A stretch of DNA of 52,802 bases from an uncultured Candidatus Saccharibacteria bacterium (GCA_964424985.1 CAYRKQ010000004.1:1-52802); one strand, 5' to 3'. Positions 19,935 to 37,476 are shown, counted from the stretch's first letter. A program made the numbers and translations. Notes: generated by a model not told the origin, from the letters alone.

Positions 19935-21458
19935 TTATGGGCCAGCTTTAAAGTAGAGTTTATAACTACTAATATCTAGTCCGGACTCTTTCAGCTGTTT
20001 GATAATCAACTCTTTTTTACGCACGTATTCACTATTGTCGTAGATAAAACTGCCGTTACCCTTGTCTGCATATGCTGAGTCGAGTAGAACCGCGAAGAAA
20101 ATAGACTTCGAAGAATAGTCGCTCGTAATAACTGGCAACTCCTTTATAGTATCGTTCATTAGATCAAGTGGGTCGGTGGGACTTTTACTAACTGAGCTCG
20201 CCGAAGAAAAGTAAGTGCTAAGTGTTGCCAAGCTAGAGCTGTGGGAGCCGGTAAAAAGCACGCCATCCTTAGTGTCGACTAATGAGTCGATTGCCAAGCC
20301 AGTTTCTCGCAGTAAATACGACATACTCCTGTGGGTGTCATAACGGTAAAGCATGTCTGATTGAGTGTAGTATAGGTTGTTACTAACCATAACTGCCAAA
20401 TCTGTGTTTGGGATCATCAGTTCTTTCTTGAGATTTTCAGCATTGAATAGAACGGTTTCTTTAGAGAAGTAATCATGAAAAACAAGTAGCTTGCCACTAC
20501 CCGACAAGCCTATGTTATCTCCATGACCCTCTCCAATTACCTGTGCTTCTTGTTTTCTTACAATCTTGTCATTAACGACATATGTTAGCCCGAAGGCCTT
20601 GCCCATTTGTTCGCCAAACTCATCTTTCTCTACAGTTGGTCGTTCATTGTATGTGACTATCGCTATTCCTTCGCCGAGTACACCTACTACATTTGATGAG
20701 TCGGCTAGATTCGAAGCGTCTTTGGCGAAGGAGTAATCAATAGGTTGCTTATTATAGTCTGAGAAGTAGTAAAGTTTCTTTGTTGCGTCATTTGTGATTA
20801 AAAATTCATTGCCATGCACTGATATTTTCCCAAAAGACGAACCTATGAATTTGCTAACTCGTGGCTCAATGATCGACACTCCCCTAAGGCTTATATACGC
20901 CAACTGTATATAATTATCGGCCTCCTCGCTGGTTCCTTCGTATGTGATAAAGCTCAAAATACCGTCTTTGTAAGGAACGGGTTCAGTCTGGATAGCGACA
21001 CTGGTCAGGTATGGCTGATTTTTAAATACGTCTCCAGCTTGTCGTTTAAATAATTTTCCACCAGAGCAGTAGATGTAGACATTGGTCACATCTCCAAATA
21101 GACAGGTTGCCTCAACTTGATTCGGGGCTACTTTTTCCACCACTTTTTGATTTTCAAAGCTAACATATAAACGCTCAACTCGTAGTGCCCGAACGCGTGG
21201 GTAGGCTGTTGTTTTCATCATACCCTTGGTTGCTCGGAGGCTGTAGTTACCTCGTCGAACAATATTTATGCCATTTCGTAATGCTTTTTCTTTGGCGCCG
21301 TTTTCTGTAGCCGTTAGTGTGAGCTGTTCTGGCGCCTGATCCGGCGCACCGCTAATAATAAGAAAAGAATAGTTGCTTGCCGCGTACAATGCTACTGCTA
21401 TCAAACACAGGAGTATGACAAGAAGCTTGTGGCCCTTAATGTAGTTAATATATTTCAT
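19935..21458 (-). CDS. Hypothetical membrane-anchored protein, last gene of the T4SS-like operon
   Basis: Single N-terminal TM helix (LLVILLCLIAVALYAA) and a beta-rich ectodomain of about 470 aa with no motif I recognise. TAATG overlap with the upstream gene if the start is 21458 (alternative 21470). Confidence 0.6.
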   Translation of the reverse strand: MKYINYIKGHKLLVILLCLIAVALYAASNYSFLIISGAPDQAPEQLTLTATENGAKEKALRNGINIVRRGNYSLRATKGMMKTTAYPRVRALRVERLYVSFENQKVVEKVAPNQVEATCLFGDVTNVYIYCSGGKLFKRQAGDVFKNQPYLTSVAIQTEPVPYKDGILSFITYEGTSEEADNYIQLAYISLRGVSIIEPRVSKFIGSSFGKISVHGNEFLITNDATKKLYYFSDYNKQPIDYSFAKDASNLADSSNVVGVLGEGIAIVTYNERPTVEKDEFGEQMGKAFGLTYVVNDKIVRKQEAQVIGEGHGDNIGLSGSGKLLVFHDYFSKETVLFNAENLKKELMIPNTDLAVMVSNNLYYTQSDMLYRYDTHRSMSYLLRETGLAIDSLVDTKDGVLFTGSHSSSLATLSTYFSSASSVSKSPTDPLDLMNDTIKELPVITSDYSSKSIFFAVLLDSAYADKGNGSFIYDNSEYVRKKELIIKQLKESGLDISSYKLYFKAGP

Positions 21459-23185
21459 TAGTTTGAACACCCCCTTGTTGGTAATGTTGAAAGGTTAATG
21501 TTTGTTTTGCCCTCCCCGAGCTGTCTAAATAAATCCTGAGGGCAGTGTTTTGTTCCATTAATGGAAATGCCAATGTGCAGATGGGGGCCGCTACTATTCC
21601 CCGTGTTGTCAGATGTGAAAATCTGTTGCCCAGCTTTCACTTGTTGTCCGTTTGTTATTTTTTCACTCCCGGGAATTCCATGACAGTAATTAAAGGTGAT
21701 GCCCCCCGGCATATCAACGGAAACGCCGGCACCACATGCGCCACCCGATTTTCTCGCAGTACCTGAGGTCATGCTATAGACTGGTGTACCGGTGGCAACT
21801 GGTATATCAGACGCTGGATAGTCGTGATGGGGCTTGGTGAACCAGTTAGGATTTTCGTTCCAGTATTTTACATCAACTGGCCAGGCAAGATCGCCAACCA
21901 TACTTCCCGAGCCCCCTCCGTTACAGGTCTCTGCGCTGGAAGCCTCTCCCTGCAACGACCCGTATTGATTAAGTGCTGATAATGCATACGCTGTTCTTTT
22001 GTCCAGGTGCTGAACATTCGTTAAAGGCGTCTTGCTTGTGCTACCTCCAATTACTGCAACTTCGTAGAAGCGACCCCAGTACCAAGTGGCGTGCTGATAA
22101 TCCTGCTGTTGCTTCAGGCCTTCGATATCGCCTCGCTGTTCCGCCTCGACAATACTAAACCGAAGTTGAGCATCGAGTGTAAGCGGGTCAAGCCCTTCGC
22201 CTTTTGCCCACTCCACAAGTCTTGGCCACCGATGGCTCTTGTCCCATTGAAAAATACCACGATAACCAGACGGACTGACAATTGTCGGGTCAATATTAGG
22301 GCCAGATTCTGCCATGGCGTTTCCGACCACTCCTGCTGCTTGGTGCGGAGCCAAACCGATATTTAATAGATGCTGAAACATTATTTTTGGGTTTTCACCA
22401 TCTATGGGAACGCTGGCAGTGGTGGTACAGGGGGCGCAGCCTGTGGAGTCCTGCGATGGCGAAGTGCCTGCCCGCCCGCCAGTAGTTCCTGATTTGATGC
22501 CACTTGCAACAACCGGCGCCAGTTTTGTGTAGTCTGGGTGCACTCCGTCCGAGCCGGGTACCACAGTGTTATTGATAACGGTTATGCCCGAGGCTTGAGA
22601 TAGGTGCGTGTTAAACTCCTCCCCTTTGGCATCCTCGTTTGCGTCAATCAGTGAGCCCTTCTGAAGATTTGTGTTAAGCCAAAATATTGGCGCACCTGTT
22701 TTTATATTTGAGACCATCTCCTTGATGCCTTCAGGATTGCCTTTCGCACTGTCCAGATTTGAACCAAGTACTACAAGCACATAATCGGCGTCAGTAAGAT
22801 CTTGAGGCAATGATTTTACAACTTCTATCCCTTTGCTCAATGTCCTGCCTTGAAGGACGTCTCCCTTTATAGACCAACCACTACTTTCGGGCAGCTCTGT
22901 TCGTAGTGTCCCCGGGTTTTTAATAAGACCCTCGCCAAGTGAATCACCAATCACAAATATATCCCCAGGGGCTAAAGGTGTTTGTACTGAGTTGGCAGCA
23001 GCTTTACACTGATCGATATCATAGTAATCAATTCCTAGGTTGAAAAGCCGTATTTGCTCGGGGCTCAGACCTTGGCCATAAACTGGTTGCATCTGTAAAA
23101 ATATATATGCCAGAGCCAGCACTACTAAAAGCATTGGGTTGAGTAGCTTTTTGATGGTGGTTAATTGAGTAAGTATAGTTCTCAT
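21458..23185 (-). CDS. Secreted three-domain cell-wall hydrolase: SGNH/GDSL esterase, lysozyme-like domain, M23 peptidase
   Basis: Signal peptide MRTILTQLTTIKKLLNPMLLVVLALAYIFLQ (start 23185 preferred). GDSL block IFVIGDSLGEG, GSNLD and DGVHPD (DxxH). Central AAGVVGNAMAESG...YRGIFQW resembles phage-tail/conjugative lysozymes. C-terminal M23 HxH motif GPHLHIGI. Confidence 0.75.
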   Translation of the reverse strand: MRTILTQLTTIKKLLNPMLLVVLALAYIFLQMQPVYGQGLSPEQIRLFNLGIDYYDIDQCKAAANSVQTPLAPGDIFVIGDSLGEGLIKNPGTLRTELPESSGWSIKGDVLQGRTLSKGIEVVKSLPQDLTDADYVLVVLGSNLDSAKGNPEGIKEMVSNIKTGAPIFWLNTNLQKGSLIDANEDAKGEEFNTHLSQASGITVINNTVVPGSDGVHPDYTKLAPVVASGIKSGTTGGRAGTSPSQDSTGCAPCTTTASVPIDGENPKIMFQHLLNIGLAPHQAAGVVGNAMAESGPNIDPTIVSPSGYRGIFQWDKSHRWPRLVEWAKGEGLDPLTLDAQLRFSIVEAEQRGDIEGLKQQQDYQHATWYWGRFYEVAVIGGSTSKTPLTNVQHLDKRTAYALSALNQYGSLQGEASSAETCNGGGSGSMVGDLAWPVDVKYWNENPNWFTKPHHDYPASDIPVATGTPVYSMTSGTARKSGGACGAGVSVDMPGGITFNYCHGIPGSEKITNGQQVKAGQQIFTSDNTGNSSGPHLHIGISINGTKHCPQDLFRQLGEGKTNINLSTLPTRGCSN

Positions 23186-23196
23186 TATAAATCCTA

Positions 23197-26154
23197 TTAC
23201 GGAGGCGTTGACACCTCTCGTGTGCCCCAGTGCCAATATTCTTTCCAAAGTTGACTAATACCATGTGTACTGGCATTATTGTTCATCCACGTCCATGTCC
23301 CAGATTCTGGAAGCTCACAGCGAGCTTTCTGAGTAGTTTTTTGTAAACATCTGCCACTCATTGCGGCGCTTCCGGTTCCAAGGCCATCAAAGTTGAAATC
23401 AATAGCGAAGCCCATTTGGTGATTAGACTTCCCGGGCTCGGCCACCAAGCCGTTATCTCTGCTTGATTGCGGAGCATCGTCATATAATCTTTTCTGCTGC
23501 TCCATTGTTCGGAAACTGCTGTCGAGGCCGTTGACTACAAGTGGGTGGCCTGCTGCACTTGCCGCCTCTGCTAACTCATAAAAGTTTTTAGAAACCGTTG
23601 AGTTGACTCTTACCTTAGCGCCTGCGGCTAAGCTTGAAATATTTGGGATAATACAGATTTTGATTTTTCTAGGCTTACCGTCAGCATATCCCAGGTAGGC
23701 GCCGTCTTCGGGTTTATAGTCTTTGTCTTCAACGGTTCTTGAATCGCAGGGTACATCATCGGTATCATCTTCGCTGTCGGCAGCGCCATCGGCTGTCGTG
23801 GCTGTAGCGGTAGGGGTGTCAAATCCAAGCAGTTGGCAGGAGTCGGCTTCGCCGTTGTAGCAATTCTCTGCTTCTAGAGTCATTACGTCCATAATGTAAA
23901 ATCGTACACGCGTCCAGTCCTCGCTCGTGTCATTACATCCGGCGGCTTCATCACGAGCCTTACTAAGATATCTTGTGCCTTGAGGAACCGGAGTTAAGCC
24001 GCCTTCATCATCGACTTCAAAGCCAAAGCAATCTCTAACTCTATCTTTATCTAACCCTATATCATTGATAACTTTATCTTCGTTTTCAAACGGGTTTTCA
24101 TACCGCTCATCATTAAGTTCAGCTTGGCTGAAGCCAACTTGCTTAACTTTATCACCGAAGACTTCCTTAAAGCTTGATGAGCCCTGCGCCTTGGCGGTTC
24201 CGGTGAGCGCACCAGCATACATTTGAGGGGTGCTCACTGTATTTGAAAATGCAAAAGAGGCCATGCCGCTTAGTGCGACCCTAGGGTCTCGCGTTGCGGG
24301 TAGCGACATTAGTGCCGTTGAGGTTATTGAATCTTGCTCTCTGGGGCTAAATAGCCGTGCCAGTAATGGCTTCTTTTTAAATTCCGCTAGCCGTTTATCT
24401 CGCAGGTAAGCTTGCTGCTTACTCTGTTCTTGGTCGGTGAGTTCCCTCCCGCCAAAAGTTAGGGCATGTTCGTTACCTCCTAGCAAAGAGCCCCACACTG
24501 TGTAGCTACCTAATACCGCCCCTGTAACATCGTCCTTAATCTGTGTTCCAGCCAGTGATGACACCATCCACTCCACAATACCACTACTTGCTATAACGGC
24601 ATTCTGTATCTCGCCTAACACAACCGCAGTTATACCGCCACTCAATAAATCAACAGTCCAGCCAACTGCCCTATTGGTTACAAACCCACACGCCTTACCG
24701 ATTAACTCTTCGCCGCCAATTTTTCTAAATATCTCTATAACAGGGTTGCCTGCATTTGTTGGGTGGGCTTCATTTGGAAGGCTGGGGCCAGTCGCTGGCT
24801 GGCCGTTAAGATATTGTACTTCTCTTGCTTGGTTCCAAGAGCGTTCACTCTTCTCGGCGCTTGCATCATAAAGATCTTGTGTGGCAAAGCCGATTTCGTC
24901 TATATCAACTTGCCCCGACTGTAGTTGCGTACCGAGTGACATATATCTTGCGCCTGTTCGTATCAGAGGTAACACCACATTGGCTGTACGCAACTCAGAT
25001 GCGGAGTCGACAATTTGATAAGCGGCACATACAAGACCGACTACGGCCACTCCTTTTGCCGCTTTGTTCACCCGGGACTTTATCTCGGGCTCACTATTTA
25101 CATCGATGGAATCTGTTTCAGGTATCTTGTTGCCATCGGGATCGACATTGCCCGAGTCCCCGGTTGAAGTAACCGATCCTGCTGGTTTTGCACCCTCTCG
25201 TATCGCTGCTCGTTTTTTTTCACGGTAAGTATCGTATTTTACTTTAGCATTTTGTGCCAAACGATGAGACTCTACGTTGGCAAAGTTCACACCAGCTTTT
25301 ATTTTTAGTACTCGCGCACCAAGCACGCCTGGCTTGACGTCAAGATTTTTCAGTCCGGTCTTCAGTTTCATGATGTTTGCTCGTGCTGTATTTGCGCGTC
25401 CACCAAAAGGGTCAATTTCTATATAACGTCTACCCCCAGTGTCGACCGTTCCGGCCTTGACTTCAAACTCCCCCCCGACGCCTGAGGCGCGGAATTTTCC
25501 TTCGTTGGCTGGATCAATCTCGATACGCACGAGTCTTCCCCGTTCAAACACAGGCTCCATACCCTGTGCTCCTAGCTTTGCTTCAAATTTCTTTACTGAC
25601 CTTCGGCTTAGCATTGACACCTTCCCAAGCCGACGCATTTCTCTTTGGTCGGGATACTTAAGATAGCGGTAGGCGCGACCTAAGCGGTCTTCTGAGCTGT
25701 TGTTCGTGCCGTCAAAACCGAAGCCACTCAAAAGTTTAGAAATCTGTAGTATTTGAAATGGCTGAATTGCCATAAATCCTGCAATAAGTAACCCAATGCC
25801 AACACCGGTAGCCACAGTTGCGCCCGAGGATACTTTATGGTTGCGTATGAAGCCGGTAAATTTTTGTCTTCTGCTCTTCTTTATGGTTGGATCGGTAGCT
25901 TCAGGAGATGGTTTATATAAAGACTCTCCAGCACTTTCAGAGATTGCGTTTTTCTCAGCTTTCGCTTCTTCACTTTCGGTGGGTGGAGGTTGTTTTTCAA
26001 GGTCGGGAAGCTCGTGGTCGCGAGCTATTGCATTGCCTCGGTCATCCAAGGCCTGCATATCCGGCTGGCCGACAATTGAATCAAAGGTATCGTGGTAATT
26101 CTCCTCGGAAGGATTCGGTACTTCTTGTTCGGGTTTGTCTGTTTTTGTGCTCAT
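23197..26154 (-). CDS. Large membrane protein with C-terminal VanY/M15-type carboxypeptidase-like domain
   Basis: 985 aa. Acidic disordered N-terminus and TM segments (VATGVGIGLLIAGFMAI, VAVVGLVCAAYQIV). C-terminal SFRTMEQQKRLYD...EPGKSNHQMGFAIDF matches the SxHxxGxAxD zinc-peptidase motif of VanY-like enzymes. Confidence 0.7.
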   Translation of the reverse strand: MSTKTDKPEQEVPNPSEENYHDTFDSIVGQPDMQALDDRGNAIARDHELPDLEKQPPPTESEEAKAEKNAISESAGESLYKPSPEATDPTIKKSRRQKFTGFIRNHKVSSGATVATGVGIGLLIAGFMAIQPFQILQISKLLSGFGFDGTNNSSEDRLGRAYRYLKYPDQREMRRLGKVSMLSRRSVKKFEAKLGAQGMEPVFERGRLVRIEIDPANEGKFRASGVGGEFEVKAGTVDTGGRRYIEIDPFGGRANTARANIMKLKTGLKNLDVKPGVLGARVLKIKAGVNFANVESHRLAQNAKVKYDTYREKKRAAIREGAKPAGSVTSTGDSGNVDPDGNKIPETDSIDVNSEPEIKSRVNKAAKGVAVVGLVCAAYQIVDSASELRTANVVLPLIRTGARYMSLGTQLQSGQVDIDEIGFATQDLYDASAEKSERSWNQAREVQYLNGQPATGPSLPNEAHPTNAGNPVIEIFRKIGGEELIGKACGFVTNRAVGWTVDLLSGGITAVVLGEIQNAVIASSGIVEWMVSSLAGTQIKDDVTGAVLGSYTVWGSLLGGNEHALTFGGRELTDQEQSKQQAYLRDKRLAEFKKKPLLARLFSPREQDSITSTALMSLPATRDPRVALSGMASFAFSNTVSTPQMYAGALTGTAKAQGSSSFKEVFGDKVKQVGFSQAELNDERYENPFENEDKVINDIGLDKDRVRDCFGFEVDDEGGLTPVPQGTRYLSKARDEAAGCNDTSEDWTRVRFYIMDVMTLEAENCYNGEADSCQLLGFDTPTATATTADGAADSEDDTDDVPCDSRTVEDKDYKPEDGAYLGYADGKPRKIKICIIPNISSLAAGAKVRVNSTVSKNFYELAEAASAAGHPLVVNGLDSSFRTMEQQKRLYDDAPQSSRDNGLVAEPGKSNHQMGFAIDFNFDGLGTGSAAMSGRCLQKTTQKARCELPESGTWTWMNNNASTHGISQLWKEYWHWGTREVSTPP

Positions 26155-26161
26155 GAGCTTG

Positions 26162-28063
26162 TTACTGTCCTAGTTGCGAAGGCGCCTCAGCTTGCGGAGG
26201 TTGTCCGCTTGCGTTGCCGCCGGCCATGACTTCGTAGGCCTGCTGGGCATTTAAGGCAATTTCTTGCATCTTTTTTATTTCTTCAGGGTTAGTGGTGATA
26301 AGGCTGGCTTCAGTGGGGCTTGGCACCACTTGAACATGAACATGATTTTGGCCTGCAAACAATAATCCTTGCCCTACCGGAAACTGGCTAAGACGCTTGC
26401 GTTCCTCGCTGGTGAGTTTAAACACTGCTGAAAGCACGTCGACGGCTGACGTCGACTGCTTTAGAAGAATCTGCATGGAAGAGTTGGAAACAATGGCCCG
26501 GCCAGTTTGGGAGCTCATCATATCTTCGACATCTTGGCTGATGGTGGTTAAGCCCAAGTTGTACTTACGGGCTCGTTTGGCTAAAGAGAACATAAAGTTG
26601 GCTGAATCTTGATATTTCAGCAGCTGCCAGGCTTCGTCAATAATCAGCATGCGGCGCTTCCTGTCTGACTTGGTTTTATTCCAGATGTGATTTAAGACAA
26701 TATACATAGCAACTGGTCGCAGCTCGTCTTCAAGATCACGAACGTTAAAGACCACCATTGAACCATTCACGTCAACATTTGACTGCTGGCTAAAGATGCC
26801 GGCAAATGTTCCCGTAGTGTATTTTCTCAGGCGCTGCGCCATGCTGGGTCCGGTTCCTTGCATGTGCAGGAGCGTTTCGTATAAATCCCCTATCACAGGC
26901 GGCGACGTTTGGTGTGTCAGAGGGTCTGAGGTGATGCCAGCTTTGGCGTAGGTGTCAATCAAGGCTTGGTCAAGATCGGCCTCTTCTACGGGGTTGAGTG
27001 CACCGCCCATCATAAGCCGTAGGAGCCCGTGAAGGGTAATAATATTGGCTCTCAAAGCGTCATTGGCCTCGTCTTTATCGACCACTTGAGGGAGATCAAA
27101 TGGGTTGATGCGGGTCGTTGAGCTCAGTGCCATGCGAACATACGAGCCGCCAACCGCTTCACATAACTTTTGGTACTCATTTTCTGGGTCAATAATAATA
27201 ACTTCGGTGCCCATCATCATGGAGCGTACGGCCTCGAGCTTCACCATGAACGATTTACCAGCACCAGACTTTGCAAAGACCACCATGTTGGCGTTTTCTA
27301 AACTAAAACGGTCGAAAATGACCAGGCCATTATTGTGCATGTTGATGCCATACAAAATACCTTTTTCATCCGTCAAATCGGCGCTGGTGAAGGGAAAGCT
27401 GGTAGAAATAGCACCGGTGTTCATGTTGCGGCGTACTTGCAGTTGGTCGGTAAACTGGGCAATGGTAGAGTTTAGCCCTTGTTCCATCTGGACAGTTGCC
27501 GGCTTTGAATACACCAGCTGTTGCCCCAAAATAGTTTCCACCTTATGCTGCACCACCTCGAGTTCTTCAATTGAGTTAGCGTAGAGCGTAAAGTACAGGC
27601 TAAAGCGGAAGAAGCGTTCTTCACCGACCTGAAGTTTGTCGCGAAGTTCTTCGGCGTCCATAATGGCTGCCTGTTTGCCTGGGTCACGAACGCGGCCTTT
27701 TTCGGCATCAATTTGCAAACCAGCCTCCAGTTGGCTCACTTTTTTACGCAAATTTTCCAACACCACCCGGCTCGCCACTGGGTAGATAAACATAGAAATA
27801 TCAATTTCTTCATCGATATTAATGACTGGTGAGAGCCAACCAGTGAAAATTTGCCGCGGGTAGCCGTAAACGTAAAACGAACGGGCGTATTTGGTTCCCA
27901 GACGAAAATGGCCAGATTCCAGCTCCAGCGAACTTGGTGCAATAAAGTCGCGCAGCTCCGAGATGCCCTTTTTAAAGGCGGCCTCAACCTCTTGCTGCTC
28001 GCGCATACGCTGCTGCGTAGCCAGATCCACCGTGTTACCCACCGGTTTTTGACCTCCCGCCAT
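26162..28063 (-). CDS. virB4: VirB4/TraE-like type IV secretion ATPase
   Basis: Walker A FAKSGAGKSF, Walker B RMLIIDEAWQLL. N-terminal YARSFYVYGYPRQIFTGWLSPV block typical of Gram-positive VirB4-like proteins. Confidence 0.85.
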   Translation of the reverse strand: MAGGQKPVGNTVDLATQQRMREQQEVEAAFKKGISELRDFIAPSSLELESGHFRLGTKYARSFYVYGYPRQIFTGWLSPVINIDEEIDISMFIYPVASRVVLENLRKKVSQLEAGLQIDAEKGRVRDPGKQAAIMDAEELRDKLQVGEERFFRFSLYFTLYANSIEELEVVQHKVETILGQQLVYSKPATVQMEQGLNSTIAQFTDQLQVRRNMNTGAISTSFPFTSADLTDEKGILYGINMHNNGLVIFDRFSLENANMVVFAKSGAGKSFMVKLEAVRSMMMGTEVIIIDPENEYQKLCEAVGGSYVRMALSSTTRINPFDLPQVVDKDEANDALRANIITLHGLLRLMMGGALNPVEEADLDQALIDTYAKAGITSDPLTHQTSPPVIGDLYETLLHMQGTGPSMAQRLRKYTTGTFAGIFSQQSNVDVNGSMVVFNVRDLEDELRPVAMYIVLNHIWNKTKSDRKRRMLIIDEAWQLLKYQDSANFMFSLAKRARKYNLGLTTISQDVEDMMSSQTGRAIVSNSSMQILLKQSTSAVDVLSAVFKLTSEERKRLSQFPVGQGLLFAGQNHVHVQVVPSPTEASLITTNPEEIKKMQEIALNAQQAYEVMAGGNASGQPPQAEAPSQLGQ

Positions 28064-28899: not shown

Positions 28900-28948
28900 A
28901 AATACACCTTATTATGTCACACCAGAGGCCAGTATGTACAGGTTATGC

Positions 28949-29806: not shown

Positions 29807-29863
29807 ATAAGCATAAGTATACCATTTGGTGCGCGACAGGTGGTAGATACCGACTTACTTTTC

Positions 29864-31840
29864 TTAATCATCTGCATCGTCCCAGGTTCTAGTGGTTTCG
29901 GTTCTTCCTCCATCTGGTGTTTCTCCTGCCGCAGCCCTCCGGGCCCTTTCGGCGTCAAAATCTGCCGTGGGTCGTGGGCCGGCTGAACCACTGGGAGCTG
30001 CTGGCCCGGGCATTACAAGTTGCTGAGGTATCATATTGCCATCACCGTCAGCTCCCATTCTTGTGCCAAGACCACGAGTGCGCATTTCATTGACTTTTGC
30101 TTCAACAACTCTAGCGGCATCTGGGTTATTTGCCAGTGCGTTTGCAACATGTGCCTTGGTATTCGCATCCGTGTAGCTACCCTCCATTGATAGCATGGCA
30201 ACCATCTCGACTCTAGCGGCTTTTTCACGATCGCGGTTGTCATACTCTTCTTGTGTGACTTCTGGGCCGCGAGTGCCGTCGGCATTTGGTCTGTCGTACA
30301 TCTTGCCAGTACTTACGTCGGAAGTCACTCCTTCGTTATCATCCCGGGCGGCGTTTCTTACAAGTGACTCCACCACTACCTGCTTGTTGTTGTAGGAACT
30401 CTCTGTCCCGGCGATAACGTTACCAGAGTCGTCATATTGTGCGTAGTTTATATCGTAATCCTTAAGCTGCCCAAGATGGCCAGGGCCAAGCTCTCTTGTG
30501 GCTTTGTCCAGAGTTGCATAGGCCTTTGACCTTAAGCCAGGATCCTCGCTAGACAAGGTGTACACTTGACCAGACGTAGCATCATAGCCGGCTGCGAATC
30601 CTGAAAAGTTCCCCTGACCCTTATTAGTTTCTCTAAGTTTGTTGACGGCGTTTTGCTTAAATGCTCGATCCATAGAGCTATTCCCATAGATTGTGTTAAG
30701 CGACTCAAGTGCGGAGTCATCTAGTTTACCGAAGCCAGAAGATATACCCATGGCGGCGACTTGGTATCGGGATCCAGTTTTGCCATACATGCGCTCAAGT
30801 CTTGCGGCTTGTGCGACCTTCTTATCGTCACCACTCTCGCGTAACTGCTTAACTCTTCTACGCAATGTCCCGTTTGATGCTCCATGTCGGGCAAATTCAT
30901 TGGCAGTGTCGTGATCTTTTATGCCCAACTTCATCATCTCTTCCTGAGCCTCATCAATTTCTCTAGAGTGATTACGCATAAAATCAGTTGCTGATTTTCC
31001 ACCTATTCGACCTCCTGTTGCTCCGTGGAGCACTGAGGTAGGCCGATTTGCTATAAACGCAGCTTTATTAAAGAAGTTCGCTCGTTTACTGTTTCCGTCA
31101 AATTTACGACCCTGTCTAGCTGCCTGTCTACTCATTGCTCCGGCTTCATGGGCTGACTTGCGTCTTAGGCTAATAGATTCACGCGTGGCATTCTTCAGAA
31201 GGCCGCCAACTGTTCCCATTGTGGTGCCTGCGAACTTAAAGGTGAACGGGACTAAGAAGAACGGCGCAAATGTTAAAATAAAGCGAGCAAGCGTACCCCA
31301 AACCCCAGGGTCTCCGTCTCCATTAAGTTCAAATAATCCAGACGCAAACTTACCACTAATAAGTAAGAGTACTATGATCGGATACATGAGGAGCACCTTA
31401 ATGTAGGTGTTAAACCATTTTTTTGCGAGAGCTTCGGTTCCTGGCAGAATCCAGAGCGCGATGGCAATTGGCGAAGCCAGAATTAAAAATATAATCATTA
31501 TTTGACGGAATAAGACAGTCATCACTGCTGAAGCAAGTGCCACCGCGCCAACCATGAGCATCGGGACGAATATTTGAAACGAACCATAAGCAAGAGTAGC
31601 GCCTATCACCACGCCAATTAACGTGAAGGTACCGGCTTGTGTTCCAGCGTTAGAACTAGATATTAGTTCATAGTTTAAGTTTAACGCACCACCTATGTTC
31701 GTTAGCATAGCTTGAACTGAATCGCCTAATGCATTTGAAAAATCTAACAAAATTGTACATATAGACCACGATAAGTTTACAAATACTACTGCCAATATTA
31801 ACCTTGGCAGCATTTTTTTAACTGTATAAGCGTCTAGCAC
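29864..31840 (-). CDS. VirB6/TrbL-like polytopic membrane protein with a hydrophilic C-terminal extension of about 430 aa
   Basis: At least six hydrophobic helices in the first 220 aa or so, followed by a long charged region. Position next to the VirB3/VirB4-like genes. Confidence 0.6.
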   Translation of the reverse strand: MLDAYTVKKMLPRLILAVVFVNLSWSICTILLDFSNALGDSVQAMLTNIGGALNLNYELISSSNAGTQAGTFTLIGVVIGATLAYGSFQIFVPMLMVGAVALASAVMTVLFRQIMIIFLILASPIAIALWILPGTEALAKKWFNTYIKVLLMYPIIVLLLISGKFASGLFELNGDGDPGVWGTLARFILTFAPFFLVPFTFKFAGTTMGTVGGLLKNATRESISLRRKSAHEAGAMSRQAARQGRKFDGNSKRANFFNKAAFIANRPTSVLHGATGGRIGGKSATDFMRNHSREIDEAQEEMMKLGIKDHDTANEFARHGASNGTLRRRVKQLRESGDDKKVAQAARLERMYGKTGSRYQVAAMGISSGFGKLDDSALESLNTIYGNSSMDRAFKQNAVNKLRETNKGQGNFSGFAAGYDATSGQVYTLSSEDPGLRSKAYATLDKATRELGPGHLGQLKDYDINYAQYDDSGNVIAGTESSYNNKQVVVESLVRNAARDDNEGVTSDVSTGKMYDRPNADGTRGPEVTQEEYDNRDREKAARVEMVAMLSMEGSYTDANTKAHVANALANNPDAARVVEAKVNEMRTRGLGTRMGADGDGNMIPQQLVMPGPAAPSGSAGPRPTADFDAERARRAAAGETPDGGRTETTRTWDDADD

Positions 31841-33246
31841 TATAGCTTCCCTCCAAGTGTCTGAGAAATGATCAGTATAAGAAATGCAATTACAAACAGT
31901 ATATTGGCAATATTTCTAAATATGGCCCAGGCTTCGTAAAGCGAGTCGCTTACTTCGTAGCGTAAATTATCTTTAAGGTAATCACCAAACATCCTTAGAG
32001 CACCTTCAATTGTGTCAATGATTGGGCAAAGAATCCACGAAAGTGGACTGTTTAGGTTTGCATCACATGAATCTTGATCAACACTTTGGTCATCATTACC
32101 TTGATCACCGAGGCCATCAGTAGTTGGAGCGGTTACTTCAAGGGTACTCTTTATTTTACTAGCCAGCGGGCTTTTGTTAACTATACAATCTTTTATATAG
32201 GCGGTACTCAGCTCATTAACAGTCAGTCTGCCCTGAGCGTACCTAAGTTTATCGTACTCTTTTATAATACCTTCAGCAATCGATGATGCCTGGTCGGCGA
32301 TGGGCATGCCTGAAAATGACGATTCTGCGCTTGCGCCAGCAACACAGAACTTAACTGAGTCATAATTGTCACTTGCAAGTATCTCTCTGGCTTTTTCAAG
32401 CTTGTACTGCAGTATTTCTTCATCAAGTGCTTCTTCAAGGGCACTTTCACCAAAGGTCAATAAATATCGATTACTGGGGTTGTCAATAATGAAACTTCGT
32501 ATGGAATCACAATCTGCAAGCCCGGTGGTGTATGTACCGTAAATACGCATCGCGCCCATGTAGCCCACTACGCGAAGTCGATTATCTTCTGGTATCCAGT
32601 TTTCTTTTTTCGCCCGTGTTTCGTCGGTTCTTTCGATACTTGAGTCCTTCCATTTCCAGCAGGCACCAAAAGCATCGCTAATAACGTGGTCTCTCCATAA
32701 ATTAAAACTATCACTTCTGCCAGCAATGAGACTTGTTGCATAGTTTTTAATATCAGTTTGGAGTTTGCTCCAATTAGTCCTCGGGGTGTAAGGGAATGAA
32801 CCGGTATTGTAGTGGTCTTTAATAAATGCTTGACGCTTTTCCGGCTTGGAAGCTCCCTGGTAAGCAGTCTCATAGTACTCGGACAGAGCCTTCGCACAGC
32901 TTATAGTTGCTAAGTTTGAGTTAGATGAGCCAAATAGTATTGAAGGCACTGAGAATGTGTTGCCGGCAGTGGCCTTTAACGGGCTGACGCTTGGATTTTC
33001 ATAATCATTTTTGGTGAGTGACTTCAGGTCGAGCAAACAGACCGACTGACTGTTATTATCTGTCTTTTTCGCTCCTGTAAGTGCCCGTAGAGTTTCATAG
33101 CGAACCACAACTGTTTGATTACCCGGCATACGCGCACTCCCGCTATTTTGTGCAAAAATGACTAACGGTGACAGGGCGGAGATACCAACAGAAACTAAAA
33201 AGAGAGACAGCAGAAAACCACCCCCAAGTCTGCGTAGTTTTCTCAT
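31840..33246 (-). CDS. Hypothetical secreted protein with C-terminal membrane anchor, 8 Cys
   Basis: Signal peptide FLLSLFLVSVGISALSPLVIFAQ and C-terminal TM ILFVIAFLILIISQTL. No recognisable family. 1-nt overlap with the VirB6-like gene. Confidence 0.6.
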   Translation of the reverse strand: MRKLRRLGGGFLLSLFLVSVGISALSPLVIFAQNSGSARMPGNQTVVVRYETLRALTGAKKTDNNSQSVCLLDLKSLTKNDYENPSVSPLKATAGNTFSVPSILFGSSNSNLATISCAKALSEYYETAYQGASKPEKRQAFIKDHYNTGSFPYTPRTNWSKLQTDIKNYATSLIAGRSDSFNLWRDHVISDAFGACWKWKDSSIERTDETRAKKENWIPEDNRLRVVGYMGAMRIYGTYTTGLADCDSIRSFIIDNPSNRYLLTFGESALEEALDEEILQYKLEKAREILASDNYDSVKFCVAGASAESSFSGMPIADQASSIAEGIIKEYDKLRYAQGRLTVNELSTAYIKDCIVNKSPLASKIKSTLEVTAPTTDGLGDQGNDDQSVDQDSCDANLNSPLSWILCPIIDTIEGALRMFGDYLKDNLRYEVSDSLYEAWAIFRNIANILFVIAFLILIISQTLGGKL

Positions 33247-33863
33247 AATTTTGCAATCTCTCGGTTATAGCTCCGCAGCGAAAGGAGGTCTTTGGTAGCA
33301 CTATCTTTGGGTATGAATGTAGAGGCGATTTTCCCAGCGTTTTTCTCAAGTTGCGATCCGCTAGTATAGTAAAAACTTATCTTCCATACAAAAGCCTCAC
33401 CGAAAATGTAATAGTCCGTGTAGGGAGTTTCACCTGCTATTTTGGTAACAACTGCGTCGTTCTCCCCAATCCTGGTCGTTTCTACGGTGGCACCGGACGA
33501 AGAGATCGCCTCTTTGAACTTTTCGATATCTGGTACGGCACCTACATCTGTATATCTTGAAACCTTATATGAATCAGTTGTGCCTCCTTGGCTACTATCT
33601 TTGGCCGTGAAGGTAACGTTAACGTAGTCTCCTTCTCGCTGGTATGCCTTCGGAAAGTTAATTGAAAACCAGGAATTACTGTAGAGGTTAAAATCCTCTC
33701 TGAGTGTTCCGTCTTGCCCGACTTTATTACCCTGACTTGTTCCTAAAACTGTCACAATAATTACGATGACAATAGCTAGCAAAGTAACGCCTACTAATAG
33801 TAGGCGACGTTTGCCATTAGAAGACCGAGTCTGAGAATCCCCAGTCTTATAAAATGTACTCAT
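33243..33863 (-). CDS. Hypothetical bitopic membrane protein, first gene of the operon (VirB8-like in architecture only)
   Basis: N-terminal TM RLLLVGVTLLAIVIVIIVTVLG plus a globular domain of about 150 aa. 4-nt overlap with the next gene. Confidence 0.55.
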   Translation of the reverse strand: MSTFYKTGDSQTRSSNGKRRLLLVGVTLLAIVIVIIVTVLGTSQGNKVGQDGTLREDFNLYSNSWFSINFPKAYQREGDYVNVTFTAKDSSQGGTTDSYKVSRYTDVGAVPDIEKFKEAISSSGATVETTRIGENDAVVTKIAGETPYTDYYIFGEAFVWKISFYYTSGSQLEKNAGKIASTFIPKDSATKDLLSLRSYNREIAKL

Positions 33864-33935
33864 GCTTAAATGATAGCAATAAATTACCTGTTCACAAAGT
33901 CAAATTCCCCAAATTACCGAGGAAGCCGAGCAGTT

Positions 33936-33944
33936 TGCTATACT
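33936..33944 (+). promoter_or_regulatory. Extended -10 element (TGCTATACT) 9 nt upstream of the first pilin-like gene
   Basis: TGnTATACT at 33936-33944, ATG at 33954. No clear -35 or Shine-Dalgarno sequence. Confidence 0.4.
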
Positions 33945-33953
33945 ATCTCTGAC

Positions 33954-34313
33954 ATGACGCAAAAAATAAAACAACTAGCTCTTCGTGGTTCTCTATTTTT
34001 AGTGGTATTCTCTACAGTACTAAATGAGTCTGTTTTTGCACAAGATTTAGACCCGGCTACTGTCGGCACGCCGCCCACCGGTGGTAGTGTCTACGACTGG
34101 CTTAGTATGATTATTAACGTACTCTCCGTAGTGGCACTGTCGCTTTTTGTGCTTAGCATGATTATTGCTGGCTATCAATACATGACAGCCAGGGACAATG
34201 CCCAGCAAGTTTCAGATGCTAAAAATAGAATAACTACTACTGTAATTAGTATTATTTTGTTTGTCTTTGGGTATGCTTTTTTGCAATGGCTTATACCCGG
34301 CGGCGTTTTTTAG
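33954..34313 (+). CDS. VirB2/TrbC-like pilin paralog 1
   Basis: Signal peptide ending VFAQ, then two hydrophobic helices flanking AGYQYMTARDNAQQVSDAKNRI. No Cys. Start 33954 is preferred over the listed 33870. Confidence 0.6.
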   Translation: MTQKIKQLALRGSLFLVVFSTVLNESVFAQDLDPATVGTPPTGGSVYDWLSMIINVLSVVALSLFVLSMIIAGYQYMTARDNAQQVSDAKNRITTTVISIILFVFGYAFLQWLIPGGVF

Positions 34314-34379
34314 TAATAGCCACGCTACTCTTTGAATTATCATTAAATAATATGATCAAATGAGGTACTATAAATACAT

Positions 34380-34826
34380 ATGTTAAAACGTGCCTTATTT
34401 TCTATAGTGCTTTTTAGCACCATCATCATGGCTGGGCTAGTATTTACAACGCAGCCGACCTACGCTTGTGATCCAGTTCCGGGTGACGGTGGTTTTGCTG
34501 AAGACATATTTCCCCCTTGGTACAAATATCTAGACGGTGTAGAAGATTCTGAAGGTGTATGTCGAGTCGATGTAACAAATGCAAATCCAGCCAGAACGGC
34601 TACCCTTATTCTTATTGCAATCATTGAACTACTTACAAGATTGGCGGCGCTCGTAGCTGTTGGGTTTGTAATATACGGTGCAATACAGTACATAGTTAGC
34701 CAAGGCGATTCACAATCACTTAGCAATGCCAAGAGTACTATTGCAAACGCCCTGATTGGCTTGATTATCACACTGCTATCCGTTGCTTTGATACAATTTA
34801 TAGGGCGAATATTCGCTGTGAAGTAG
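34380..34826 (+). CDS. VirB2/TrbC-like pilin paralog 2
   Basis: Signal peptide ending TYA. Cys-bracketed 32-aa loop (CDPVPG...SEGVC). Core YGAIQYIVSQGDSQSLSNAKSTI between two TM helices. Confidence 0.6.
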   Translation: MLKRALFSIVLFSTIIMAGLVFTTQPTYACDPVPGDGGFAEDIFPPWYKYLDGVEDSEGVCRVDVTNANPARTATLILIAIIELLTRLAALVAVGFVIYGAIQYIVSQGDSQSLSNAKSTIANALIGLIITLLSVALIQFIGRIFAVK

Positions 34827-34835
34827 GGATTATAG

Positions 34836-35126
34836 ATGAATACGATCATACAACTTGGTATTTTGGCACAAACAGTATCGGCCCCCCTGCTCCCTAAACA
34901 GTCTGTCGGGGGCGTAGTCCCCGTGTTGTTGAAAATTGTATTTGGAGTGGCAGCATTACTGGCCATAATTTTTATTGCTTACGGCGGGCTTAAGTACACA
35001 ACTAGTAACGGTGATTCAAATGCTGTGCAAAGCGCCAAAAACACTATTTTATCTGCGGTAGTTGGGCTGGTGATTGCTGTTTCGGCTTTTGCGATTGTTG
35101 ATTTTGTGGTTGGGAAGCTGGGATGA
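34836..35126 (+). CDS. VirB2/TrbC-like pilin paralog 3 (short, no obvious signal peptide or Cys loop)
   Basis: Core YGGLKYTTSNGDSNAVQSAKNTILSAVVGLV. ATGA overlap with paralog 4. Confidence 0.55.
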   Translation: MNTIIQLGILAQTVSAPLLPKQSVGGVVPVLLKIVFGVAALLAIIFIAYGGLKYTTSNGDSNAVQSAKNTILSAVVGLVIAVSAFAIVDFVVGKLG

Positions 35127-35542
35127 ATATAAAAAAATACTGCATGCTTATTGCTACCTTTTTGTTCTTAGTTATCGGCATACAGTCACTTTTGGTCTAC
35201 GGGAGTGTATCGGTAAACGCGCAAGACCCGTTTGTTTATACATGTGATGATGCCGTTGGTGCCGATACAGAATTTTGTAAAAATGTAAACTCAGAGAGCT
35301 CAAGAAGTATTTTATTTGGTGATAAAAGTATGCTTTATATGATTGCCCAAACTATTGTTTGGCTTGTCGGTATACTCTCGGTCATTATGGTTATAATTGG
35401 CGGCTTTCGGTATGTAATTTCGGCCGGTGATAGCAATGCGGTTCAAGGCGCCAAAAATACTATTATGTATGCACTTATTGGTGTTGTAGTCGCTGCATTT
35501 TCTCAAATAATTGTAACTTTTGTTTTGTCGAAATTTATCTAA
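35123..35542 (+). CDS. VirB2/TrbC-like pilin paralog 4
   Basis: Signal peptide ending VNA, loop CDDAVGADTEFC, core IIGGFRYVISAGDSNAVQGAKNTIMYALIGVV. Confidence 0.65.
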   Translation: MNIKKYCMLIATFLFLVIGIQSLLVYGSVSVNAQDPFVYTCDDAVGADTEFCKNVNSESSRSILFGDKSMLYMIAQTIVWLVGILSVIMVIIGGFRYVISAGDSNAVQGAKNTIMYALIGVVVAAFSQIIVTFVLSKFI

Positions 35543-35564
35543 GTGGTATACCATGGAGGAAGCT

Positions 35565-35969
35565 ATGAAGAACATAATTAAAAACATTACCGCAACTCTT
35601 CTACTAGTAGTGGGGTTGGGGGTTGTGCTTACGCCCACAATTTATGCTAGCCCGGCATCTGATTCTTGTGACGTGCTTAAGAGTATTGACGATACCGTAA
35701 CTTGTGACTCGGCCACTTCTAAAGAAGCTGGTAATAACATTGCAATAAAAGTGATAAATATACTATCAGTGGTAACTGGATCCATTGCTGTAATTATGGT
35801 TATAATTGGCGGAGTAAGGTATGTAATTTCGGCCGGTGATAGCAATGCGGTTCAAGGCGCCAAAAATACTATTATGTATGCATTGGTCGGTCTTGTAGTG
35901 GTATTATTTGCACAGGTTATTGTTCGTTTTGTGCTTTCTACTGCTACAAACCCAACACCCACCCCATAG
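35565..35969 (+). CDS. VirB2/TrbC-like pilin paralog 5
   Basis: Start MKNIIKNI preceded by GGAGGA. Signal peptide ending IYA, loop CDVLKSIDDTVTC, core IIGGVRYVISAGDSNAVQGAKNTIMYALVGLV. Confidence 0.65.
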   Translation: MKNIIKNITATLLLVVGLGVVLTPTIYASPASDSCDVLKSIDDTVTCDSATSKEAGNNIAIKVINILSVVTGSIAVIMVIIGGVRYVISAGDSNAVQGAKNTIMYALVGLVVVLFAQVIVRFVLSTATNPTPTP

Positions 35970-36051
35970 TAAAGCCGCTTGTGTAATGTGGCTGTGTCCG
36001 TTATAATTTGCCTTATAGCTAGCTTTTAATCGAAAGGAAACAATAAATATA

Positions 36052-36483
36052 ATGAAAGCTCTACTTAAAAAAATTGTCAATCTAATTAGCGTTGCAGCTC
36101 TTGTTGTAGTACCGCAGACAGCGGTACTTGCCGGAGTGGCGCATGCGCAATCTGAGGTGCCTCAGGTAACAACTGATATACAGAATGCTGCCTGTCAAGG
36201 TGCGAATCTGAGTACTAGTACAGAATGTACCCCTGGCGACTCACAAGGGAATTTCAACACACTTATGACCCGTATCATTAATATCTTCTCGATTGTTGTT
36301 GGTGCCATCTCAGTTATCATGGTGATTATTGGCGGCTTCCGCTACATCATTAGCAACGGTGATAGCAATGGGGTGTCTGGTGCCAAAAACACCATCCTCT
36401 ATGCCCTCGTTGGTTTAGTGGTAGTGCTCTTCGCTCAAATTATTGTCCGCTTTGTTCTTTCAAACGCAACTGCTGACGTATAA
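36052..36483 (+). CDS. VirB2/TrbC-like pilin paralog 6
   Basis: Signal peptide ending AHA, loop CQGANLSTSTEC, core IIGGFRYIISNGDSNGVSGAKNTILYALVGLV. Confidence 0.65.
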   Translation: MKALLKKIVNLISVAALVVVPQTAVLAGVAHAQSEVPQVTTDIQNAACQGANLSTSTECTPGDSQGNFNTLMTRIINIFSIVVGAISVIMVIIGGFRYIISNGDSNGVSGAKNTILYALVGLVVVLFAQIIVRFVLSNATADV

Positions 36484-36501
36484 ATAATCGGCCTAGATTT
36501 T

Positions 36502-36530
36502 AAAAGACCCCGTACTCAGGGGTCTTTTTA
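36502..36530 (+). terminator. Rho-independent terminator after pilin paralog 6
   Basis: AGACCCC-gtactca-GGGGTCT followed by TTTT. Confidence 0.7.
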
Positions 36531-36568
36531 GTTTACTGACTCCTTATAAAGTGATACTATTTTAGTAT

Positions 36569-37066
36569 ATGAAACACACCGTGAGACACCTCCTCAGCTG
36601 TTTGCTTATAACTGCGTTTATTCTGGCTGCTGGTGTCATGGCCGTAACTCCAGTTTATGCGCAGGAAACAACTCCCCCGCCAATTACACAGCAGACGGTG
36701 GCGGATAGCGTGTGTCAGGGTGTGCTTGGTACGCAAGACGTAAATGTGGATACCACCGTCACGGCCGCGGATTGTAAAGAAAATGGCAGCCAGACGTTCA
36801 ATGATGTGATTCGGCGTATCATCAACATCTTCTCCATTGTCGTGGGTGCTGTTTCAGTCATCATGATCATTATCGGCGGCTTCCGCTACATTATTTCAGG
36901 CGGCGATTCAACTGGTGTCAGTGGCGCTAAAAACACCATCCTCTACGCAGTAGTTGGCCTGGTTATTGTCCTGTTTGCACAAGTTATTGTCCGGTTTGTC
37001 GTAGCAAACCTCTCCACCCCCACGACTCCCCCACCGGTTTCAAACACCAGCCAGCCACAAAACTAA
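36569..37066 (+). CDS. VirB2/TrbC-like pilin paralog 7 with Pro/Thr-rich C-tail
   Basis: Signal peptide ending VYA, loop CQGVLGTQDVNVDTTVTAADC, core IIGGFRYIISGGDSTGVSGAKNTILYAVVGLV. Confidence 0.65.
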   Translation: MKHTVRHLLSCLLITAFILAAGVMAVTPVYAQETTPPPITQQTVADSVCQGVLGTQDVNVDTTVTAADCKENGSQTFNDVIRRIINIFSIVVGAVSVIMIIIGGFRYIISGGDSTGVSGAKNTILYAVVGLVIVLFAQVIVRFVVANLSTPTTPPPVSNTSQPQN

Positions 37067-37073: not shown

Positions 37074-37111
37074 CTAATTTCCAATTTTGCAGTTTTCAAT
37101 TTACAATCAAT
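37074..37111. repeat. Left arm of the 38-bp inverted repeat enclosing the four-helix-bundle gene
   Basis: 37082-37111 is the exact reverse complement of 37477-37506 (30 bp). It extends to 38 bp with one mismatch and one G-T pair. Confidence 0.9.
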
Positions 37112-37117
37112 TTAGCA

Positions 37118-37474: not shown

Positions 37475-37476
37475 TC

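Follow-up and report, generated by a model that had tools for sequence, protein, structure and literature searches.

The gene cluster at 19935-37066 in a 52,802-nt (~53 kb) stretch of DNA from an uncultured Candidatus Saccharibacteria bacterium (GCA_964424985.1 CAYRKQ010000004.1:1-52802) is, as judged by sequence comparison, almost certainly the vertically inherited chromosomal type IV secretion system (T4SS) of the Saccharimonadia. We refer to the whole stretch as the window and count coordinates from its first letter. The cluster corresponds to SEML1_0004-0019 of Candidatus Southlakia epibionticum ML1 and would fall into the MPF-FATA-derived 'Patescibacteria clade' of these systems. The cluster is real and well preserved, and it exemplifies a system that has been described before, matching the published one gene for gene. 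An earlier interpretation made from the DNA alone (the sequence-only reading) had considered the architecture undefined, but it is already in print (Wang 2023, Cell, PMC10633639; Quiñonero-Coronel 2025, Microb Genom, PMC12102498). The missing relaxase and coupling protein, the pilin arrays, the origin proximity, the dosage idea and the uptake hypothesis have all been published previously. The T4SS of Saccharibacteria is among the few machines with demonstrated essentiality for the epibiotic life that the Candidate Phyla Radiation (CPR)/Patescibacteria lead, a group that makes up a large part of the bacterial tree and is for the most part uncultivated. The window adds component detail, namely the division of the motor into a TrsD-like protein and an ATPase, a split extended VirB6, a PsbP-like accessory protein, three wall-cutting activities and fast surface evolution. 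On its own, it leaves the question of transport no more testable than published work does.

The clearest component was the VirB4-family ATPase (coordinates of all features are listed in Table 1). Against the cut-off of 325 bits set by NCBIfam NF045971 ('VirB4-like conjugal transfer ATPase, CD1110 family'), its gene product reached 374.5 bits, and it matched the VirB4 crystal structure 4ag5 (E 1.3e-47). The VirB4-like ATPase of the sequence-only reading thus does score as VirB4. Its translation contains a Walker A (GAGKS) and a Walker B motif (IIDEAW). The CedB and CedD profiles yielded 58 and 28 bits, far under their cut-offs, and by sequence the protein appears closest to the CTn2-type CD1110 family. 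The match covers positions 179-732 of the NF045971 profile. The adjacent open reading frame (ORF) of 278 amino acids (aa) matched positions 11-119 of the same profile (E 2.7e-6) as well as NF041427 TrsD (E 1.8e-6), both below the curated cut-offs. We thus concluded that VirB4 is encoded here as a TrsD-like N-terminal protein plus an ATPase. The stop codon of the TrsD-like gene overlaps the virB4 start by 1 nt, and a TrsD-like gene was found beside virB4 in 79/80 related loci, with ~51% identity.

These related loci derive from a VirB4 scan of GTDB species-representative genomes, which confirmed 457 relatives. The best 80 of the 457, with 73-84% VirB4 identity, were kept; nearly all of them are labelled Saccharibacteria/Saccharimonadales or unclassified, and a few stand under other phylum names. 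The exact VirB4 sequence of the window was not on record; through these relatives, the organism can be placed as an uncultivated Saccharimonadales. The fetched loci extend 10 kb from virB4, and neighbours were counted in the 49 long loci (at least 20 kb). Here, we found TrsD in 49, PrgI in 48, VirB6 in 47, the pilin array in 38, dnaN in 47 (on the hydrolase side) and dnaA in 44. Where the fetched flank is long enough, the pilins are followed by hsp20 and comFC, in the same order as in S. epibionticum (SEML1_0020/0021), and both in relatives and in S. epibionticum tRNA-Ser(tga) comes directly after comFC. The order comFC-hsp20-pilins-VirB6-PrgI-TrsD-VirB4-hydrolases-dnaN-dnaA is recurrent across dozens of Saccharimonadales species; the synteny comparison that the sequence-only reading had proposed thus revealed the same locus with the same flanks. 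Median identities were 75% for VirB4, 51% for TrsD, 38% for PrgI, 30% for VirB6 and ~29% for the hydrolases, and the accessory exported proteins were undetectable in the relatives' loci, save for homologues of a 511-aa protein (2/80). Sequence conservation declines from the cytoplasmic motor to the surface-exposed parts, the latter evolving very fast.

A profile scan of the plausible non-nested window ORFs of at least 100 aa revealed no VirD4, VirB11 or integrase domains, as the sequence-only reading had anticipated. Nor were integrase or recombinase domains found in the window bounding the T4SS genes, the flanks of which are conserved core genes. The GC content of the cluster (0.42-0.50) is close to that of the adjoining core genes. 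Because neighbours are kept across species and no integrase, VirD4 or VirB11 was detected in the window, the locus appears to be a fixed, vertically inherited chromosomal feature of the order and not a mobile element. The proposal of a T4SS-like machine distinct from an ordinary conjugative element therefore stands, supported by the VirB4 score, the synteny and a window without integrase and VirD4. A remnant of an integrative and conjugative element (ICE) or plasmid lying near dnaN by chance in this genome would fit the homology of the genes to MPF-FATA conjugation genes and the adjoining tRNA-flanked, toxin-antitoxin (TA)-rich island with its Replic_Relax gene, but it is contradicted by synteny, given the same flanks in dozens of species (dnaN in 47/49; hsp20-comFC-tRNA-Ser on the other side; ML1 too), in line with the missing integrase and the core-like GC content.

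The ORF map showed nine co-directional ORFs on the minus strand (19935-33863), faced by seven ORFs on the plus strand (33870-37066), exactly as first described. The junctions, in contrast, had been described as packed with 1-4 nt overlaps, and this applied to only 3/8 of them; the eight measured gaps were -13, -52, +7, -1, +49, +57, -1 and -4 nt. As also claimed, the cluster abuts dnaN, which ends at 19922, 12 nt away, with dnaA beyond it.

Table 1. Features of the T4SS cluster, its neighbours and the adjoining island (window coordinates unless a related locus is named)
Feature	Coordinates	Strand	Remarks
dnaA	17238-18566		Conserved neighbour beyond dnaN
dnaN	18819-19922	+	Three DNA_pol3_beta domains; boundary neighbour, outside the machine
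511-aa protein	19935-21470	-	N-terminal transmembrane (TM) anchor (residues 8-40), ~470-aa exported domain; last gene of the operon
Secreted peptidoglycan hydrolase, 596 aa	21458-23248	-	Signal/TM segment, Phage_lysozyme2 + Peptidase_M23
985-aa membrane-anchored protein	23197-26154	-	C-terminal VanY/LAS-type (Hedgehog/DD-peptidase) peptidoglycan peptidase
VirB4-family ATPase	26162-28063	-	NF045971, PF19044 (TraG P-loop), AAA_10, DUF87; without the usual N-terminal domain
TrsD-like protein, 278 aa	28063-28899	-	Equivalent of a detached VirB4 N-terminal domain
PrgI/VirB3-like membrane protein	28949-29806	-	PF12666; long low-complexity C-terminal extension
VirB6-like protein, 658 aa	29864-31840	-	Polytopic domain + ~450-aa hydrophilic tail; C-terminal part of extended VirB6
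468-aa ORF	31840-33246	-	Signal peptide, ~400-aa exported domain, one TM helix; N-terminal part of extended VirB6
206-aa bitopic protein	33243-33863	-	TM helix + PsbP/Mog1-like ectodomain (predicted); first gene of the operon
VirB2/TrbC-like pilin 1	33870-34313	+	TrbC (PF04956) 28.8 bits, cut-off 27.9; T4SS_pilin 25.4 bits
T4SS pilin 2	34380-34826	+	PF18895 28.6 bits, cut-off 26.6
T4SS pilin 3	34836-35126	+	PF18895 37.8 bits
T4SS pilin 4	35123-35542	+	PF18895 36.3 bits
T4SS pilin 5	35520-35969	+	PF18895 39.0 bits
T4SS pilin 6	36052-36483	+	PF18895 42.7 bits
T4SS pilin 7	36569-37066	+	PF18895 47.4 bits, TrbC 32.5 bits
hsp20	37596-38093	-	HSP20 domain; conserved neighbour on the pilin side, functional part not implied
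comFC	38187-38873	+	Pribosyltran + DZR_2 domains; conserved neighbour on the pilin side, functional part not implied
Island	38874-44034		Replic_Relax, BrnTA-like pair, tRNA-Ser(cga), GIY-YIG-like ORF, MazEF-like pair, tRNA-Arg(gcg), RelBE/ParDE-like pair, 189-aa membrane protein
Mobile module, ~1.95 kb	39012-40954	both	Replic_Relax gene, AT-rich repeat-bearing spacer, putative TA pair
Replic_Relax/MOBC-superfamily protein	39032-39898	-	PF13814 51.6 bits, cut-off 25.3
AT-rich spacer	39899-40230		Direct repeats; module palindrome 40044-40079
Putative TA pair, 96 + 102 aa	40231-40521, 40514-40822	+	Read as BrnT/BrnA-like
Serine recombinases near Replic_Relax homologues	L081 13033-14691; L085 13720-15456; L087 13695-15383		Resolvase, Recombinase, Zn_ribbon_recom

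Among the membrane components, the PrgI/VirB3-like protein of the sequence-only reading was corroborated by a PF12666 score of 51.5 bits (cut-off 27) over residues 5-90; a hydrophobic segment spans residues 14-66. The VirB6-like polytopic protein fared less uniformly. The 658-aa ORF contains at least five hydrophobic segments, and its TrbL score of 18-20 bits lies below the Pfam cut-off. At the family level, TrbL was matched by 8/15 members of the VirB6-like family (best E 4.7e-7), and a profile of the polytopic core returned TrwI/VirB6 of R388 as its sole PDB match (E 0.02). The VirB6 identity is thus weak from the single-protein hidden Markov model (HMM), and sequence comparison supports it at the family level. 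In other Saccharimonadales, there are single ORFs of 950-1190 aa to which the C-terminus of the 468-aa and the N-terminus of the 658-aa ORF align as one contiguous stretch, indicating that the two ORFs together form one extended VirB6. The 1-nt frame change, a TAG/GTG overlap at 31840, falls in the loop between two helices; the junction (31838-31842) reads …GGKL-stop TAG/GTG LDAYTVKK…, where relatives read through. Truncated VirB6-like ORFs of 420-540 aa are also present in several relatives. The split could be a true one, with the two ORFs translationally coupled, or it could stem from a recent mutation or an error in the assembly.

All seven plus-strand products exhibited a signal peptide and two TM helices, and all exceeded the cut-off of a pilin family: six passed that of PF18895 (T4SS_pilin), and pilin 1 passed that of TrbC (PF04956) instead. 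Both the seven-gene pilin-like array and the VirB2/TrbC-like small proteins of the sequence-only reading were thereby recovered. Pairwise identity among the paralogues is 21-50% (mean 34%), and the arrays of relatives comprise 1-8 genes. Pilin 1 probably starts at Met29 (position 33954). The first possible start codons of pilin 1 and the 206-aa gene on the opposite strand lie 6 nt apart (window 33863-33954). Upstream of the ATG of the 206-aa gene, at a distance of 7 nt, a -10-like hexamer ends, from which a leaderless or near-leaderless operon mRNA would result; apart from this site, promoter and terminator scans returned mostly non-diagnostic consensus matches.

Two of the minus-strand products are wall hydrolases. 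The 596-aa hydrolase matched PF18013 (69 bits) and PF01551 (54 bits), the M23 matches recurring in NCBIfam, and is the positional equivalent of the essential SEML1_0006; its true start is probably an internal ATG (Met22). The 985-aa protein, with a PF02557 match of 40.5 bits at residues 849-936 and a TM segment at residues 110-133, is the equivalent of the essential SEML1_0007 in both position and domain. Its N-terminal 800 aa gave no Pfam match and a single weak homologue among 5.8 billion proteins, and thus represent a near-orphan region. Upstream of the lysozyme-like domain of the 596-aa hydrolase (window 22500-23000), we noted GDSLGEG, GSN and DGVHP in the order of SGNH blocks I, III and V. 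By this motif reading, the region could be a peptidoglycan O-acetyl esterase. An SGNH-esterase domain at residues ~100-250 obtained no Pfam support at E <= 10 and none from a PDB sequence search, and stays a reading at the level of motifs.

The accessory exported proteins are the least conserved products. An AlphaFold2 model of the 206-aa protein (predicted local distance difference test, pLDDT, 86) gave PsbP (E 4e-5), BT_1490, Tsi3, Apa, EagT6, DcrB and LpqN as top Foldseek matches. This protein appeared to be an orphan in a word-index search, whereas full HMMER returned 32 matches, including itself, among 1.84 billion representative proteins, that is, 31 distant homologues with identities of at most 34%. 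In analogy to the NTF2-like SEML1_0012 we considered it as a VirB8-like part; the confident model is predicted to be PsbP/Mog1-like instead, and this candidate was discarded. The 511-aa protein yielded no Pfam or NCBIfam match. As its homologues occur in only two related loci (L002 and L005), it appears lineage-specific at the sequence level. According to the sequence-only reading, about half of the coding capacity had no nameable family. For the 468-aa ORF (part of VirB6) and the 206-aa protein (PsbP/Mog1-like fold) this no longer holds; the 511-aa protein and the first ~700 aa of the 985-aa protein are still orphans.

Comparison with known systems was consistent with these assignments. In ML1, SEML1_0004-0019 show the same order and orientation. 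Past dnaA-dnaN, the minus strand encodes exported accessory proteins, a hydrolase of the lysozyme type, a protein of >900 aa that ends in a DD-peptidase fold, VirB4, a ~290-aa TrsD-like protein, PrgI and VirB6-like proteins; six plus-strand pilins, hsp20, comFC and tRNA-Ser come next. Within neither cluster was a recognisable relaxase or coupling protein detected. ML1 differs in having recF after dnaN, two ~1000-aa VirB6-like genes, the NTF2-like (VirB8-like) SEML1_0012 and six pilins, whereas the window has one VirB6 in two ORFs, seven pilins and the PsbP-like 206-aa protein in the position of SEML1_0012. The hydrolase of the window carries M23, that of ML1 a cysteine peptidase and a second lysozyme-like domain. 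Between the two sets of accessory proteins there is no detectable sequence similarity, and essentiality is known for ML1 only. There, most genes of the T4SS locus, including the pilins and both hydrolases, were essential by transposon sequencing, with SEML1_0012 as the exception (PMC10633639). The same study likened the ML1 system to Gram-positive conjugative systems, from which it differs in having pilins and in that neither a coupling nor a relaxase protein could be recognised (PMC10633639).

A survey of Patescibacteria described a monophyletic VirB4 clade related to MPF-FATA with TrsD, PrgI/VirB3 and VirB6, VirB2 arrays of 2-11 genes (~25% mean identity) and substitute wall hydrolases (PMC12102498). 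Relaxases are rare in that survey, MOBC being the commonest class, and VirD4/type IV coupling protein (T4CP) homologues occur in most Patescibacteria genomes, far from virB4 (PMC12102498). It also placed the T4SS near dnaA/dnaN/rnpA, put forward the gene-dosage idea and hypothesised import of DNA or other macromolecules (PMC12102498). The window shares VirB4, TrsD, PrgI, VirB6, the pilin array, hydrolases and origin proximity with this clade, and we found no essential difference.

MPF-FATA systems (pCF10 Prg/Pcf, CTn2 CD1110, ICEBs1 Con) share the VirB4 family, PrgI, a VirB6-like protein and membrane-anchored multi-domain hydrolases right after virB4. The prgH-I-J-K order of pCF10 equals VirB6-VirB3-VirB4-hydrolase, as in the window. 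These systems lie on mobile elements, whereas the locus of the window is fixed in the chromosome. They possess surface adhesins, VirB8-like proteins, a relaxase with oriT and a T4CP, but no VirB2 pilins; the window, conversely, has a pilin array but no T4CP. H. pylori ComB and Sulfolobales Ced are importers that work without a relaxase and, to our knowledge, without a coupling protein. ComB is a diderm VirB-type system with VirB7-10. Past the shared VirB4/HerA-type ATPase, neither shows specific homology to the window. ComB has been cited as a precedent for an uptake role in Saccharibacteria (2024 review), and Ced has been described as a DNA importer (PMC12102498).

With regard to function, VirB4 and TrsD would power the construction of a VirB2 pilus, for which pilins inserted in the membrane would be assembled via a VirB3/VirB6 platform. 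The Sec-exported or membrane-anchored hydrolases would cut glycan strands (lysozyme-like), cross-links (M23) and stem peptides (VanY), and might thereby open the wall of the epibiont and probably that of the host, too. At the interface between epibiont and host, the machine could then act as a contact conduit that needs no coupling protein. Its essential task would be to supply a cell unable to make nucleotides with imported host macromolecules, and nucleic acids are the most plausible of these. To a contact conduit mainly for uptake of host macromolecules, rather than conjugation, we assign a probability of roughly 0.4-0.45. We ranked uptake first because most T4SS genes of ML1 are essential while its T4CP homologue, encoded elsewhere in the genome, is not (PMC12102498), because cells tolerate a comEC deletion despite their inability to make nucleotides, so that these must arrive by another route (PMC12102498; reviews), and because DNA-uptake T4SSs exist in the form of H. 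pylori ComB and archaeal Ced. Furthermore, there is an imaging hint: tubular structures, possibly T4SS pili, reach the host in a parasite feeding on host RNA (2026 preprint).

Several points weigh against an uptake conduit. The split of VirB6 might reflect an assembly error or a mutation that disables the gene. A VirB8-like component was not found; the 206-aa protein, the only candidate that we tested, is predicted to fold PsbP-like, and a VirB8-like domain could still lie elsewhere. In addition, a gene of the MOBC superfamily is located 2 kb from the pilin genes. Moreover, most characterised T4SSs export. A distant T4CP may be encoded elsewhere in the genome, beyond the 53-kb window. The role of the T4SS in Patescibacteria has been called 'completely unknown' (2024 review), and Wang et al. 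suggested protein export or 'an alternative capacity' (PMC10633639).

The alternative that survives best, although we consider it unlikely, is an effector exporter, by which epibiont proteins (toxins, host-manipulating factors, possibly the hydrolases) would be injected or released into or onto the host. Export is the usual direction of a T4SS, and the fast-evolving exported proteins of the operon would fit an arms race. Wang et al. wrote that the system 'may instead export proteins' and modelled it as 'DNA or protein delivery' (PMC10633639), and speculation on effector delivery to host cells is mentioned in a 2024 review. However, no coupling protein was detected among the scanned ORFs in or near the cluster, and the distant T4CP of S. 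epibionticum is dispensable where most T4SS genes are essential. Ptl-like Sec-dependent loading would need a periplasm, which a monoderm does not have, the exported proteins of the cluster have signal peptides or TM anchors of their own, and no effector is known.

Clearly less probable is a pilus for contact or adhesion only, that is, a VirB2 pilus serving as host-specific attachment organelle with nothing passing through. The divergence of the seven pilins (21-50% identity) and the varying arrays of relatives (1-8 genes) suggest adaptation to host surfaces, and since monoderm T4SSs are normally without pili, pilus gain would be the main innovation (PMC12102498; review). Saccharibacteria, however, already possess essential type IV pili for adhesion and motility (reviews), and the retention of VirB6 and of three wall-hydrolase activities, essential in S. 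epibionticum, suggests a channel over a mere fibre.

We regard it as improbable to a still higher degree that the T4SS serves as a mating pore for small mobilisable elements with a Replic_Relax/MOBC-type nuclease of their own, such as the module at 39012-40954. The sequence-only reading had stated that a relaxase was absent beside the cluster. This has to be corrected, as a PF13814 Replic_Relax gene is located 2 kb beyond the pilin array, 11 kb from virB4 and as the 16th coding sequence (CDS) from it. PF13814 is treated in the literature as MobC/MOBC relaxase superfamily, and MOBC is the commonest relaxase class of Patescibacteria (PMC12102498). If the MOBC profile of that survey detects the Replic_Relax protein, the window would join its minority with a MOBC candidate within 20 CDS of virB4. 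Against the NCBIfam MobC profile, in contrast, the protein scored 16 bits (cut-off 200), and the PF13814 family also includes replication proteins.

A structural model of the Replic_Relax protein (mean pLDDT 67, better in the C-terminal domain) exhibited a C-terminal alpha-beta-beta-beta-alpha-beta core. Foldseek returned FokI (E 1.7e-4), followed by YaeQ, PaqCI, EcoO109I and BamHI, suggesting a PD-(D/E)xK-like fold, which would favour a role in DNA transfer. The invariant residues P161-D162, D181, W183 and K187 form a PD...DxW...K arrangement, so that the (D/E)xK element of the catalytic motif is non-canonical. The N-terminal helical region of the model can be read as a winged helix-turn-helix (HTH), and some homologues are annotated by JGI as HTH regulators.

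Searches for Replic_Relax homologues yielded 287 at E <= 0.001. The best 120 of these showed 63-100% identity (the top one being the protein of the window itself), reside on chromosomal contigs of up to 1.1 Mb, and all but one carry PF13814. No plasmid or viral-contig relatives were found among the homologues, and the short contig L082 turned out to be a fragment of L081 and not a circle. The gene is spread over Saccharibacteria chromosomes at varying positions, often near a large serine recombinase or a TA pair; in one complete genome it lies inside a polysaccharide cluster near yidC/dnaA. In 3/5 other contexts, a large serine recombinase is encoded 2.5-3 kb from the homologue, which suggests small integrative mobilisable elements (IMEs). 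The module of the window is 79% identical at the DNA level to L081 8909-10887 (toxin 93% aa, antitoxin 97% aa), while ValRS shows only 57% aa and 65% nt identity between the two genomes. The module is thus far more alike than the housekeeping genes, and it resembles a plasmid-like or IME-like unit of Saccharibacteria that moves horizontally. A Replic_Relax gene was present in only 1/80 virB4 loci, although these cover just 10 kb from virB4 and the distance in the window is 11 kb. From its variable position, the similarity of the module and its presence in a single related locus we concluded that the Replic_Relax gene is not part of the conserved T4SS and belongs to a separate mobile module.

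This lack of synteny argues against a DNA-transfer machine, as do the absence of a T4CP nearby and the fact that conjugation would not account for essentiality. It is accordingly very doubtful that the Replic_Relax protein is the missing relaxase of small IMEs that borrow the chromosomal T4SS as a mating pore. If true, the 'relaxase-less' T4SS would retain a function in DNA transfer and might serve to deliver DNA into uncultivated CPR bacteria. The module also offers a small lead on mobile DNA in Saccharibacteria genomes.

The module is part of a larger island (Table 1). As relatives have tRNA-Ser(tga) right after comFC, the ~5.1 kb that separate the two here represent an inserted or rearranged island, which is TA-rich and variable. 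Its toxin, antitoxin and GIY-YIG names are readings of the translations and not HMM matches; in the BrnT/BrnA-like pair, only the 102-aa ORF has HMM support, a weak CopG_antitoxin match. A 109-nt inverted repeat (99% complementary) was observed at 40961-41069 and 44095-44203. It spans the 3' ends of two opposed tRNA-Ser genes and a downstream palindrome, GCCATGTACCGTACGGTACATGGC, and each copy is followed by a small GIY-YIG-like ORF (41215-41454 on the minus and 44224-44487 on the plus strand). The 3-kb segment between the repeats could be invertible.

Between the pilin array and hsp20 lies an ORF for a PF05635 '23S rRNA intervening-sequence protein' (37118-37474), exactly bounded by 36-nt inverted repeats with one mismatch (window 37076-37512). 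A homologue was found in the same place in only one related locus (L005). The segment 37076-37512 looks like a small intervening sequence-like cassette inserted outside rRNA.

On the opposite side of the cluster, the region around dnaA is likely oriC. Three copies of TTTTCCACA are located between rnpA/rpmH and dnaA (window 17072-17186), and two more DnaA-box matches, each with one mismatch, between dnaA and dnaN (18605-18759). The number of DnaA boxes across the window was not above chance (10 found, 12.6 expected), so that only the local cluster beside dnaA is suggestive; GC skew tracked gene orientation and did not locate the origin. Across the origin genes, a surface-polysaccharide cluster (44-12085) encodes at least seven glycosyltransferases, an ABC-2 exporter, a GDP-mannose dehydratase and an epimerase. 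Two toxins with PIN domains and a Fic protein follow at 12113-16330, next to yidC/jag/rnpA.

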